A stretch of DNA of 12,553 nt from Candidatus Odinarchaeia archaeon. GTDB taxonomy: Archaea; Asgardarchaeota; Odinarchaeia; Odinarchaeales; Odinarchaeaceae. Every line of letters begins with the position of its first letter. The first letter of the stretch is position 1. This document shows positions 524 through 4,200 of the stretch, one piece after another. The notes under the pieces were generated by a model. That model saw only the letters and a list, made by a program, of their open reading frames with translations. It did no database searches and was not told the DNA's origin. The translations under genes and the position numbers were made by a program. The stretch covers positions 1 through 12,553 of the forward strand of contig JAHQXC010000036.1 of the NCBI GenBank assembly GCA_029856525.1, written 5' to 3'.

Positions 524-1216
524 TTATATAATATATTTTTTTATAATTTCGATTATTTCCGGGAGCTCTTTTATAGTATAATCTACTTTCCCCTCTTTTT
601 TAAGATAATCCGCGTTGTATAAGCCTTCAACTCCTATAGTTAAAGCACCTAATTTCTTAGGCGCCTGGAAATCATATACTGTATCCCCTACCACTATAGT
701 CTCATCGGGTTTAACGTTCAGATCGTTTACAACTTTTAAAAAATGGGCTTCACTAGGCTTAATTTCAACGGTGTCATCTCTAGTCACGATACTGGTAAAG
801 AACTCTCTTATACCCGTTTTCTCTAATACTCTCTCTGTAACCTTCCTGTTGTTAATTGTGAATAACCCTATTTTTAAATTAAATTTTCTTATAGTATTGA
901 GAACCTCTCTAGCATTAGGCTTCAGCGAGGTCTCTTCGGCTGCTTTACACTCATATTCGCATACGATTTTATTAATCTCATCCTTTATTTTTTTAATACC
1001 TTTTTCACTGGTTTTAATGCTTTTAAGATAATTAACAGCTTTCTCTAATGATGTGAATATAGGCTGGTTTAGTAGATATTCGCTTGGAACACCTAAACTT
1101 GTTAAATAATTTTTAACACTCTCCCTCGCATTTACATAATCTATTTTGAACTCTATAAGTGTACCGTCTAAATCGAATACTACCGCTTTAACTTGTCTCC
1201 CTGTTTTCGCATTCAT
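524..1216 (-). CDS. HAD-superfamily hydrolase (phosphoglycolate phosphatase-like, subfamily IA)
   Basis: Motif I VVFDLDGTL, motif II LFTIN, motif III KP, motif IV VVGDTVYD, with a helical cap after motif I. Its ATG overlaps the upstream TGA (ATGA, 1213-1216). Confidence 0.9.
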   Translation of the reverse strand: MNAKTGRQVKAVVFDLDGTLIEFKIDYVNARESVKNYLTSLGVPSEYLLNQPIFTSLEKAVNYLKSIKTSEKGIKKIKDEINKIVCEYECKAAEETSLKPNAREVLNTIRKFNLKIGLFTINNRKVTERVLEKTGIREFFTSIVTRDDTVEIKPSEAHFLKVVNDLNVKPDETIVVGDTVYDFQAPKKLGALTIGVEGLYNADYLKKEGKVDYTIKELPEIIEIIKKYII

Positions 1217-2343
1217 ACTATTTCCACTATCTCAGTTGAACCTGTATAGTCTAGAAATATTTGGGGCATAAAATTTGCAAATCTTATTTTACCTCGTAGC
1301 ATATCGAATTTAACTTTGCTTATATTCGGATCATTTCTAAAACTGTAAGTGTACTCTAATTCAACTCCTGGCTGTAGATTTCTTATATCCCAGTATTTTC
1401 TCTTAAAGTCTAAGGCGCCTTCTAATATCATATCGGATATGATTAACCGCTGGATCTCCTGACCTGACTCATTTTTAACGTGGATTCGCACATTATTTTC
1501 TTTATCCATGGTGAACGGTAACTCTAATATTCTATTAATCTCTACTTTAGGATATACTATTATCGGCCCTACTTTAATTTTGGTTTTACCTGATCCGTAG
1601 CTTATCTCGTCGAATCTATAACTTAAATCTGCGTATATATCCAGTTCCCCTATTGAATCCGCTTTTACTACTAGTTTACCTGTTTTCTGAGATTTAATGA
1701 AAGGCGAGTGAAAATCGAACTCCGCTGCTCTACTAACCTGCATTATTTGAATATTTCCGCTAGGCTCCCAGTCAATTCGGAAGAACGCTCCTTCCGGTCT
1801 TGTATTTTTAATTAAATAGGTTAAATCCACTCGAGTATTAGCAGGAATAGATTTCGCGTTGAATATAATTTTCGGGAAAACCCTTGTTAAAGTGTTAACT
1901 ACGTTATTTTTTGTGTTAACTAATGTGCTTTTACACTTAGGGCAGTATACTATATGCTCTTCGTTTAATCTTTCGTTTCTAAGAATCGTGGATGCGTTTC
2001 TTATCAATCCTGCTTTACTATCGCTGGTGAGGATAGGCTCCTGGTTTTCAGAATTCCATAAACAGTGAGGGCACTCGAATACATATCTTTCATTCAAGTA
2101 TTTTATTTTTAAGTCGCTTTCACAATAATAACATTCATAGCAGTCTCTGCACTCTGTGAAACTTTCTCTAGCATCTTTTACGCCATAAATCTTTCCACAC
2201 CTGAAGCATTTATATAAAACAGGTTCAGGTTTACTGCAGTCATAGCATATTATTTCCTGACATATCGGGCAGAAATATGATTCATAAGATGTTATATACT
2301 TCTCGCATATACTACACTGGTATTTTACAGTCAAAACCGGCAC
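1213..2343 (-). CDS. Dynactin p62 (DCTN4)-like multi-zinc-finger protein with two C-terminal beta-sandwich (Ig-like) domains
   Basis: 376 aa with 16 Cys in 8 CxxC units. Residues 25-74 read C-x2-C-x7-C-x9-C-x2-C-x15-C-x2-C-x2-C-x2-C, the same ungapped spacing as human DCTN4 C30-C79 as recalled. CPHCLWNS matches CGFCRWTS, CPKCKSTL matches CRKCEHNL, and KVGPI matches SLGPL at the end of the first beta-sandwich. GTG start. Confidence 0.75.
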   Translation of the reverse strand: MPVLTVKYQCSICEKYITSYESYFCPICQEIICYDCSKPEPVLYKCFRCGKIYGVKDARESFTECRDCYECYYCESDLKIKYLNERYVFECPHCLWNSENQEPILTSDSKAGLIRNASTILRNERLNEEHIVYCPKCKSTLVNTKNNVVNTLTRVFPKIIFNAKSIPANTRVDLTYLIKNTRPEGAFFRIDWEPSGNIQIMQVSRAAEFDFHSPFIKSQKTGKLVVKADSIGELDIYADLSYRFDEISYGSGKTKIKVGPIIVYPKVEINRILELPFTMDKENNVRIHVKNESGQEIQRLIISDMILEGALDFKRKYWDIRNLQPGVELEYTYSFRNDPNISKVKFDMLRGKIRFANFMPQIFLDYTGSTEIVEIV

Positions 2344-2346
2344 CTT

Positions 2347-2889
2347 TCATTGAGTAATCCTTTTCATAAGCTCGTAATATGCTTCTATATATGATTCATG
2401 TCTTTCTTTTTCACCGAAACTTAATTTTCGAAGTATATGCGCCGGGTTCCCTATTAAAACACTCATGGGAGGTATAATGGCACCACTAGCAACCACTGAA
2501 CCTGAGAGAACGAATACTCCTTCATTTAGCTGAGTGCCTTTTTCAACTATAGCTCCATTGCATATTTTGAAATAATCTCCTATATAATTTGCTTGAATTA
2601 TACATTTTTTCTCTATTACACCGTAGCTGCCTATGATCATCTCAGAGTGGGATAGTAAGCCGTCAGAGTATTCTTCTCCAGGGTAGATTAAAGTATCGTC
2701 TTCTATGATATTATAGTTTCCGATGACTATATGCGCTAAGTCCCCGCGAACAGTTACATTTGACCCTATATAACACTTATCTCCTATGCTCACATCGCCT
2801 ATTATCCTAGCTGTTTCATTTATTATTGTATCCTTCCCGATTTTAGGAGTCATCCCCTTATATGTTATTATATTCGCCATCAAAACCAC
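2347..2889 (-). CDS. Left-handed beta-helix (hexapeptide repeat) protein, gamma-carbonic anhydrase fold without Zn ligands; dynactin p25/p27 (DCTN5/6)-like
   Basis: Hexapeptide repeats, RGDLA and a C-terminal GNPA plus helix. The three gamma-CA His positions align to Y69, K94 and Q99. IEKKCIIQANYIGDY resembles recalled p25 IEEDCVVNAAQIGSY. The start may be the ATG at 2880. The fold assignment is near certain; the p25/p27 affinity is inference. Confidence 0.75.
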   Translation of the reverse strand: MVLMANIITYKGMTPKIGKDTIINETARIIGDVSIGDKCYIGSNVTVRGDLAHIVIGNYNIIEDDTLIYPGEEYSDGLLSHSEMIIGSYGVIEKKCIIQANYIGDYFKICNGAIVEKGTQLNEGVFVLSGSVVASGAIIPPMSVLIGNPAHILRKLSFGEKERHESYIEAYYELMKRITQ

Positions 2890-2979
2890 TCATTCAACCT
2901 GTGAAATATTAATTAAATTCTCGTGAACTTATTATCCCGTTAACAAGTATACTATAAACCGCTGTTCTGTTATATCTGC

Positions 2980-3348
2980 TTAAACAAGCTTCGCTATTCT
3001 CTTAGCCGCGCGCTCCATTTCTAGAAATATAAGACCTAGTTTAACATCTTTACTTGCGCTCAATGTTAGAACAGCGTTAGCTCCAGCGCCCATAACGATA
3101 ATATACCCGTCTTTACCCTTCACATAGACTTGTTCAAGTTCACCTTTATTAAGCTCTGCAGCCGCCCTTTCACCGAGAGATAGCATAGCAGCTGTCATAG
3201 CAGCTATCATAGTTTCATCTACATTTGCCGGTAGTATTGAAGCGATAGGTAAGCCTTCTACACTGACGATTGCAGCGGCTTGTATCTGTGGTACAGCAGC
3301 CTCCAAGTCTCTTAGTATACTGTCAAGTGTTTCCGCTTTCTGCGTCAT
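2980..3348 (-). CDS. Roadblock/LC7 domain protein (canonical prokaryotic/Asgard type)
   Basis: 122 aa. AAIVSVEGLPIAS...IAAMTAAMLSLGERAAAEL-x-KGELEQVYVKGKDGYIIVM...LGLIFLEM is the typical Robl_LC7 pattern. Confidence 0.92.
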   Translation of the reverse strand: MTQKAETLDSILRDLEAAVPQIQAAAIVSVEGLPIASILPANVDETMIAAMTAAMLSLGERAAAELNKGELEQVYVKGKDGYIIVMGAGANAVLTLSASKDVKLGLIFLEMERAAKRIAKLV

Positions 3349-3373
3349 TTAGTTATACTCCTTACTGTTTCTT

Positions 3374-3847
3374 CTAACTTTTCTCAAGCTCGCCGAGGGC
3401 TGCTTTCAAATCTTCTGTAGTAACCTCTTTTTTATCCTCGCTTAATTTACTAGCTGGTTTTTCAGCTAAGAATTCATCTAATATCTCTTTTAATTGCTCG
3501 CTTGTTTTTTTAATTAAAAGACGAACCATGCCTATGTTTACATCCTTATCCGTTATTACGCTTAGTACACCTTTACCGCAGCTGGCTGCGAATATTTTTC
3601 CATCAGTGAATTCTGAGCTTAGTAGATCAAGATCGCCGATTTCCAGGTTTTTACCCTGCTCTTCGCTTGCACTGAATACAGCGCTAGCTATTGCCCCTAT
3701 TCCATCTATATCCACTGGATAGTATGAAAACTTAGATACATGGGCGATGGTTAAACCTGTTCTATCAACTAGGATTACTTTTTTTATACCTGATTCGCTT
3801 TTGATGATTTTGCTAAGTATTTCATCAAAGGTTTTAATGTTGATCAA
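3374..3847 (-). CDS. Roadblock/LC7 protein, MglB/LAMTOR2-like, with C-terminal charged linker and helix
   Basis: LVDRTGLTIA...GAIASAVFSASEEQG...DGKI...VNIGMVR roadblock core, then a ~30-aa tail ending EDLKAALGELEKS. TTG start with GGGGA upstream. Confidence 0.85.
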   Translation of the reverse strand: MINIKTFDEILSKIIKSESGIKKVILVDRTGLTIAHVSKFSYYPVDIDGIGAIASAVFSASEEQGKNLEIGDLDLLSSEFTDGKIFAASCGKGVLSVITDKDVNIGMVRLLIKKTSEQLKEILDEFLAEKPASKLSEDKKEVTTEDLKAALGELEKS

Positions 3848-3915
3848 TTAAATCCCCCATGCTATAATTTTATCTTTAGGATTATACTATTTTTAAATTT
3901 ATATGAGTCTAATAC

Positions 3916-4200
3916 TTATTTTAAAACAATAAGAATATAGTCTTCCTCTTGGGCTACATGAACTTCGCCTTTCGAAGTATTTATAGTTAGGAATTTAAGC
4001 TCCCCTTCCTCTAACTCTTTTACAGTAGATCTGGCTTTTCCTACAAGCGATGTTACTAAAGCAGCTGTTTTCTCAGTTTTCTCCCGGTCTAATGTTGTAC
4101 TTATCGGTAAGCCTTCAGTCGTAGTTATAATCACACCTCTTACTCCTTCAAATCTTTGCAGATTTTTAAGTATTGGTTGAATATCTTTTTCCCCTATCAT
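3916..4200 (-). CDS. Dynein light chain roadblock (DYNLRB1/2)-like protein
   Basis: 94 aa, short roadblock lacking the C-terminal helix. [13 protein letters not shown]...EGLPI.TTLD, KARSTV and LKFLTI...KGEVHVA..EDYILIV align to recalled human DYNLRB1 at about 38 identities over about 88 positions by hand. GAGGT lies upstream of the ATG. Confidence 0.82.

Follow-up and report, generated by a model that had tools for sequence, protein, structure and literature searches.

A conserved gene pair of Asgard archaea encoding a homologue of dynactin p62 and a zinc-less, p25-like gamma-carbonic anhydrase derivative

The window analysed here is the complete contig JAHQXC010000036.1 (12,553 nt, forward strand; C51 in our numbering) of the 1.32-Mb genome of a Candidatus Odinarchaeia archaeon (GCA_029856525.1). 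It includes two adjoining minus-strand genes: one encodes a p62-like protein that is a true homologue of dynactin p62/DCTN4; the other encodes a beta-helix protein that, as judged from its sequence, is a derivative of the gamma-carbonic anhydrases (gamma-CAs), zinc-less and with features of dynactin p25/DCTN5. This pair is kept in several Asgard lineages, and its products probably form a structural heteromer ancestral to the core of the dynactin pointed-end complex. The two genes are:

1213..2343, minus strand: p62-like (DCTN4-like) gene, 376 aa; probably 373 aa from a TTG at 2334
2347..2889, minus strand: beta-helix gene, p25/DCTN5-like gamma-CA derivative, 180 aa; probably 177 aa from an ATG at 2880 (P0086)

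The p62-like protein carries eight CxxC motifs (C10/13, C25/28, C33/36, C46/49, C65/68, C71/74, C91/94 and C134/137), all of them invariant among nine Asgard sequences. A two-residue spacer occurs between motifs 5 and 6 only, and the eighth motif is set apart from the rest; the published dynactin4 pattern is the same in its eight motifs, its 5-6 spacer and the separation of its eighth motif (PMC3583065). The spacing from motif 7 to motif 8 is 39 residues in the window protein, versus about 150 in eukaryotes. Comparison of nine Asgard with 28 eukaryotic p62 proteins by hhalign gave a probability of 99.7% (E = 8e-27, 189 columns) over Odin residues 5-196, which take in the zinc domain as well as the eighth CxxC motif and reach into the first strands of the beta-sandwich. 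This alignment places a eukaryotic p62 insert of approximately 130 residues, absent from the archaeal protein, at Odin position 120/121. Within the Asgard alignments W96 and S98 do not vary, and W96 remains almost unchanged when Asgard and eukaryotic sequences are aligned together. A profile built from five Odin orthologues aligned in the PDB with residues 27-86 of human DCTN4 (60 residues, ungapped, nine cysteines in register), and retrieved 66 matches at E <= 1e-3 from 1.84 billion (1.84e9) representative proteins. Of 63 sequences aligned, comprising the window protein and 62 matches of the profile search, 55 matched the Pfam model Dynactin_p62, and in the reverse search the more distant Asgard relatives matched the Pfam p62 family (PF05502) at E-values of 4e-4 and 1e-3. 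There were no additional homologues in a word-based search with the Asgard alignment.

The fold agrees with this relationship. An AlphaFold2 (AF2) model computed from a 53-sequence alignment that included eukaryotic p62 sequences had a predicted local distance difference test score (pLDDT) of 95.3. The top four Foldseek matches of this model in the PDB were all DCTN4 chains (template modelling score about 0.5; next fold, 0.25), and VIA-align superposed model residues 1-264 on residues 4-459 of the DCTN4 chain (Z 16.3, root-mean-square deviation 3.2 A, 251 residues). Residues 1-264 constitute the p62 core, a zinc 'saddle' formed by the eight CxxC motifs plus a beta-sandwich; in dynactin, p62 folds as a zinc-ribbon saddle and a beta-sandwich made from its N- and C-terminal sheets (PMC8047447). 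The archaeal protein thus shares with DCTN4 (p62, PF05502; chain Y of 6ZNL, 7Z8F and 8PR4, chain K of 9B7J) the order of the CxxC motifs, the saddle and the beta-sandwich, and in both systems the partner is a metal-free beta-helix protein. The two differ in that the archaeal protein lacks the long helix and disordered loop (the insert of approximately 130 aa), scores under the Pfam threshold and has an additional C-terminal immunoglobulin (Ig)-like domain (residues 265-376), closest to TRAP-beta (Z 12). The p62-like call made from the sequence alone in the initial annotation of this DNA is borne out by hhalign, the profile searches, the eight CxxC motifs and the structural matches to DCTN4 (Foldseek and VIA-align).

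Parts of the p62-like protein were also found in other Asgard proteins. In Loki-type proteins of approximately 800 aa (L041:5094-7499, plus strand; L020-L038), the N-terminal 150 residues or so match the p62-like zinc domain (E from 1e-7 to 1e-12) and are followed by PCI/winged-helix arrays and UFM1-ligase/DDRGK-like matches; there is no adjacent beta-helix gene. Proteins of approximately 380-510 aa in family f28 (L039:1228-2715, minus strand; L040; L042:3518-4672, minus strand) match only the beta-sandwich/Ig half (about residues 133-373) and carry double zinc ribbons on their flanks.

Full-length p62-like genes were found in all seven Odinarchaeia genomes (families f1 and f2) and in both genomes of genus g85 (labelled Hodarchaeota by NCBI). 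In every genome with a full-length copy whose context was read, and on further metagenomic contigs, a beta-helix gene lies directly upstream in the same orientation. The adjacent pair was observed in genus g1 (four genomes), in family f2, in a third Odinarchaeia lineage and in genus g85; across these lineages the p62-like proteins are 28-39% identical (approximately 28% between the Odin and the Hodarchaeota-labelled copies). The pair is followed by a HAD gene and then a DUF211 gene in all the Odinarchaeia lineages, not in g85; the flanks, upstream genes included, are otherwise unrelated between lineages. The conserved unit is therefore well supported as a two-gene module, beta-helix gene first and p62-like gene second, and the synteny survey proposed with the initial annotation finds this p62-p25-like pair kept across deep Asgard lineages.

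The beta-helix protein matched the Pfam model DCTN5 (PF21711) with 49.1 bits (cut-off 40), in addition to Hexapep. The positions of the three zinc-binding histidines of gamma-CAs hold Y, K and Q in the window protein, and carbonic anhydrase chemistry is therefore very unlikely. The His triad has been lost in all the p62-linked copies (Y, A, H or I at the first position; K, R or Y at the second; Q or R at the third), and the aligned residues of DCTN5 are R, E and N. In the nearest unlinked relatives (P0098-P0130) the histidines are kept, apart from one substitution in P0098; these His-bearing relatives have in common with the beta-helix protein an insertion of 7-8 residues. The genome's own canonical gamma-CA-like paralogue (L002:1273-1803, contig C9), which served as an internal control, has H/H/H and no insertion, and scored 150 bits with the NCBIfam gamma-CA model versus 80 bits for the beta-helix protein. 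DCTN5 scores followed linkage to the p62-like gene: 49-70 bits in the linked copies (56-70 in the orthologues of the window protein) versus 28-44 bits in five nearest unlinked relatives, with no DCTN5 match at E <= 1e-5 in the sixth (P0130). An Odinarchaeia orthologue, of which the central 79 aa were searched against the PDB, had DCTN5 as its best match (49.5 bits, ungapped over 75 residues); with the central part of the window protein DCTN5 came second, after an engineered mutant enzyme, and was the best natural protein. The N-terminal 45 residues are gamma-CA-like, and the C-terminal 50 aa gave no significant match in the PDB, DCTN5 included.

The protein accordingly resembles two kinds of known protein. 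It shares with DCTN5 and DCTN6 the left-handed beta-helix, a length of about 180 aa, a C-terminal helix and the loss of the gamma-CA zinc histidines, and with DCTN5 in particular an RGDLA motif, an insertion of equal length and an ungapped central alignment; it differs from both in being a single archaeal gene product that is nearer overall to prokaryotic gamma-CAs. With the insertion-bearing gamma-CA-like proteins (6SC4; also the CamH-type 1V3W and the PaaY/YrdA family) it shares the fold, the 7-8-residue insertion and the best whole-length match, whereas these keep the three zinc histidines and have no linked p62-like gene. The beta-helix part of the initial annotation, which had spoken of a p25/p27-like gene, stands as regards a DCTN5-like, zinc-less beta-helix; there is one such gene and no p25/p27 pair, a second His-less beta-helix gene being absent from the genome, where the only other match is the canonical H/H/H paralogue. 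Among solved structures the one nearest to the beta-helix protein is 6SC4, an uncharacterised gamma-CA-like protein in which the insertion occurs naturally; in 9QEZ, an engineered 'carbonic anhydrase mutant', the insertion was grafted into 9QEV.

In dynactin, p25 is held chiefly by p62 through an interface of 2746 A2; the p25 beta-helix lies on the zinc saddle of p62 and the p25 C-terminal helix on its beta-sandwich, and the helix-loop of p62 touches beta-actin and adaptors (site 1) (PMC8047447). By analogy, we infer that the archaeal p62-like and beta-helix proteins would form a stable structural heteromer. The beta-helix protein derives from the insertion-bearing gamma-CA subfamily, its metal site being lost as in p25 and p27, and the complex would represent an ancestral pointed-end core without the adaptor-binding insert. 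The simplest explanation for a conserved gene pair that encodes these two folds and has a dead enzyme site is an ancestral structural heteromer, and we regard it as the likely one. Its role would be that of a scaffold or adaptor, not of an enzyme. A complex prediction for the two proteins, run without controls, scored 0.00, which speaks neither for nor against binding.

More speculatively, the heteromer might dock on the end of an actin-family filament. Whether it acts in this way, as an Asgard filament-end module that docks on the pointed end of actin (or of another cytomotive filament) and recruits partners, is doubtful. If it does, an actin-end cap or adaptor older than dynein, Arp1 and Arp11 was the origin of the pointed-end complex, and eukaryotes later gained the helix-loop insert and duplicated the beta-helix protein into p25 and p27. 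To our knowledge the Odin host is an organism without dynein. The single actin gene of this genome is split over two contig ends (C3:5747-6319 and C8:1-477). Tubulin (a Tubulin_C match, C42:3762-4115) was detected in this genome and in the two other Odinarchaeia genomes tested; Tubulin_C was not found in the two pair-bearing genomes labelled Hodarchaeota (87-92% complete), and a strict co-occurrence of the pair with tubulin was rejected on account of these two carriers.

Several results weigh against the interpretation of the pair as an ancestral pointed-end core. A Pfam scan of the window p62-like protein as a single sequence gave no significant family (PF05502 did not appear at E <= 1), a PF05502 search of the genome did not match it, and a single-protein search of the PDB gave nothing significant, human DCTN4 being collinear but only at E = 2.5. 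Its Asgard relatives reach 18-20 bits against PF05502, below the gathering threshold of 25.3 bits, which is a curation threshold and not a biological feature. The DCTN4 fold match is not fully independent, because the folding alignment contained eukaryotic p62; an earlier Asgard-only AF2 model (five Odin sequences) was poor (pLDDT 57), and Foldseek with this model returned generic tandem-Ig matches only (transglutaminase, RbmA). Full-length p62-like genes are rare (nine of the 400 Asgard genomes searched), and the genome search found one actin and no evident Arp1 or Arp11, another difference from the setting of DCTN4, which within dynactin binds Arp11 and the pointed end of the filament. As for the beta-helix protein, whole-length scores favoured the gamma-CA-like 6SC4 (133 bits) over DCTN5 (88) and DCTN6 (51); the DCTN5 model is not exclusive, with matches in six of 14 control prokaryote genomes (above the cut-off in one); and a sister relationship to p25 is conjectural.

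The whole-length scores and the breadth of the DCTN5 model, which also matches ordinary gamma-CAs, favour a different reading, in which the p62 homology is real, the beta-helix protein, a diverged member of the gamma-CA/PaaY family, serves some other function, and p25 arose independently from a different gamma-CA. NCBI names the orthologues 'gamma carbonic anhydrase family protein', and in a language-model feature search DCTN5 and bacterial gamma-CA clusters score equally (0.97). However, such a protein would have to keep strict adjacency to a p62-like gene while the p62-like proteins diverged to 28-39% identity, and would have lost exactly the metal ligands that are missing in p25; the insertion of equal length, the ungapped central alignment, in which DCTN5 stands above all natural gamma-CAs, and the DCTN5 scores of the linked copies, higher than those of the nearest relatives, also argue against it. 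We consider this reading unlikely.

Upstream of the pair lie genes for Roadblock/LC7 proteins:

2890..2979, minus strand: intergenic region between a Roadblock gene and the beta-helix gene, with an AT-rich TATA-like element
2980..3348, minus strand: Roadblock/LC7 protein, 122 aa; Pfam Robl_LC7 66 bits
3374..3847, minus strand: long Roadblock protein, LAMTOR3/MglB-like, with a C-terminal extension, 157 aa; Pfam Robl_LC7 38.3 bits
3916..4200, minus strand: short Roadblock/LC7 protein, orthologue of Odin-RBLC7, 94 aa; Pfam Robl_LC7 75.7 bits
4414..4758, plus strand: fourth Roadblock/LC7 protein, divergently transcribed, 114 aa; Pfam Robl_LC7 33.4 bits

The 94-aa protein matches 7f8f_A (Odin-RBLC7) over all its 94 residues (E = 1e-54), the next match being DYNLRB1 (71 bits); it has a truncated architecture without the C-terminal helix, and DYNLRB is its closest eukaryotic relative. 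Odin-RBLC7 has been crystallised and published with structure 7F8F (Tran et al. 2024, PMC10933270). The 157-aa protein matches the Pfam model MAPKK1_Int (LAMTOR3) with 33.9 bits (cut-off 25) and, weakly, the NCBIfam model MglB; the 94- and 114-aa proteins have weak LAMTOR5 matches. The four proteins comprise two short and two long forms, a composition that recalls the two heterodimers of Ragulator. There is no GTPase gene in the window. The initial annotation thus identified these genes correctly: the DYNLRB-like protein by the matches just given, the two further Roadblocks by their Robl_LC7 scores, and its statement that Asgard Roadblocks are known by the published structure of the 94-aa protein.

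That annotation had joined three of these genes with the pair as a dynein/dynactin-precursor operon of five, and the open reading frame listing confirms exactly its five genes, all on the minus strand and separated by 68, 25, 90 and 3 nt. If the five genes were one functional unit whose products act together, co-orientation and short gaps would be expected, and the best non-archaeal matches of the first Roadblock are indeed DYNLRB. The probability that the pair would lie beside a Roadblock locus by chance was estimated at roughly 1%, because there are just nine Robl_LC7 matches in the 1.32-Mb genome, four of them here. The unit did not hold up in the comparison of genomes. Genus g1 alone has Roadblock genes next to the pair; its four genomes keep the same gene order from SMC to DUF211, with synteny across all 14 kb, so that this adjacency counts as one evolutionary event. 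In the other Odinarchaeia lineages and in the Hodarchaeota-labelled genus, no Roadblock gene was found in the 6-8 kb or so around the pair. In the 90-nt gap an AT-rich, TATA-like element, read at motif level only, lies approximately 25-35 nt upstream of the ATG at 2880 and therefore suggests a separate candidate promoter for the beta-helix/p62-like pair. DYNLRB binds the dynein intermediate chain, not the pointed end of dynactin, and we know of no dynein intermediate chain in archaea. The 94-aa protein shares the truncated Roadblock architecture of Odin-RBLC7 and DYNLRB1; it is not a conserved neighbour of the p62/p25-like pair, and the Roadblocks resemble MglB or Ragulator parts too. A five-gene operon acting as a whole is very unlikely. 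The Roadblock cluster consists of separate regulators of MglB, Ragulator and DYNLRB type that adjoin the pair only in genus g1, and its members are more plausibly GTPase-regulator or Ragulator-like Roadblocks than components of a dynactin precursor.

Acquisition of the pair, or of the p62-like gene alone, by horizontal transfer from a eukaryote into Asgard archaea would account for the patchy distribution (nine of 400 genomes, Odinarchaeia and one other genus). A tree of the zinc domain has three groups: Asgard p62-like proteins (90/43), presumed eukaryotic p62 proteins (91/92) and the N-terminal domains of the Loki-type PCI/winged helix-turn-helix proteins of approximately 800 aa; with three groups only, it cannot tell which two are sisters. 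Recent transfer from eukaryotes is unlikely because the Asgard sequences do not branch within the eukaryotic group, nor the eukaryotic ones within the Asgard group. The archaeal proteins moreover lack the eukaryotic insert and have an extra domain, the partner gene is nearer to prokaryotic gamma-CAs than to DCTN5, the zinc domain is present in other Asgard architectures, and the Odin and Hodarchaeota-labelled copies are only approximately 28% identical; transfer is highly improbable. Convergence of generic zinc ribbons and Ig-like sandwiches on the p62 pattern is hardly credible: Cys-rich sequence does inflate scores (bias 10.7), RPB9 zinc ribbons came slightly above DCTN4 in the PDB profile search and tandem Ig-like folds match many proteins, but the eight motifs are collinear with an identical spacer pattern, W96 and S98 are conserved as described, the hhalign match continues beyond the eighth motif into the beta-sandwich, nearly everything retrieved from 1.84e9 proteins in the open search belonged to the p62 family, and DCTN4 reached Z 16.3 versus 12 for single-domain matches.

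So far dynactin has counted as an innovation of eukaryotes: the tracing of its evolution has been confined to that group (PMC3583065), and it has been inferred for the last eukaryotic common ancestor (PMC13468126). In a search of the literature on dynactin, p62, p25, DCTN4 or DCTN5 with Asgard or archaea, no paper discussing the subject was found except for a table line in Eme et al. 2023, whose supplementary file 7 lists arCOG07221, 'putative dynactin p62 family', as a cluster of two members and infers it for the Odin ancestor alone (PMC10307638). No description was found of the p25-like partner, the conserved pairing, the occurrence in Hodarchaeota-labelled genomes or the structural match. 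The suggestion in the initial annotation that the p62-p25 pairing had not been described therefore stands for the pairing, not for the Odin p62 family, which was already tabulated. A conserved archaeal p62-like/p25-like pair would extend the eukaryotic signature proteins of Asgard archaea by the core of the pointed-end complex. It offers a simple two-protein system from a thermophile for the roles of p62 and p25 that predate dynein, and makes an origin of p25 and p27 from a dead gamma-carbonic anhydrase directly testable. This significance is tempered by the 2023 table line and by the putative nature of the function and binding of the pair.

The remaining features of the window are:

102..428, minus strand: DUF211 (COG1888) protein; Pfam DUF211 119 bits
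524..1216, minus strand: HAD-IA family hydrolase, 230 aa; Pfam HAD_2 100 bits, NCBIfam HAD-IA subfamily
6717-11539, minus strand: SMC-ScpA-ScpB run, upstream, then an ECF-type membrane protein, DUF4430 and DUF4443/winged helix-turn-helix toward the Roadblocks
11946-12341: ribosomal S8e-like open reading frame

Comparison with orthologues suggests that the true starts are the ATG at 2880 for the beta-helix gene and the TTG at 2334 for the p62-like gene; with these starts the gap between the two genes is 12 nt, not 3. The p62-like gene overlaps the downstream HAD hydrolase gene (524-1216) by 4 nt, so the co-oriented run extends past 1213, and the pair may be cotranscribed with the HAD and DUF211 genes.

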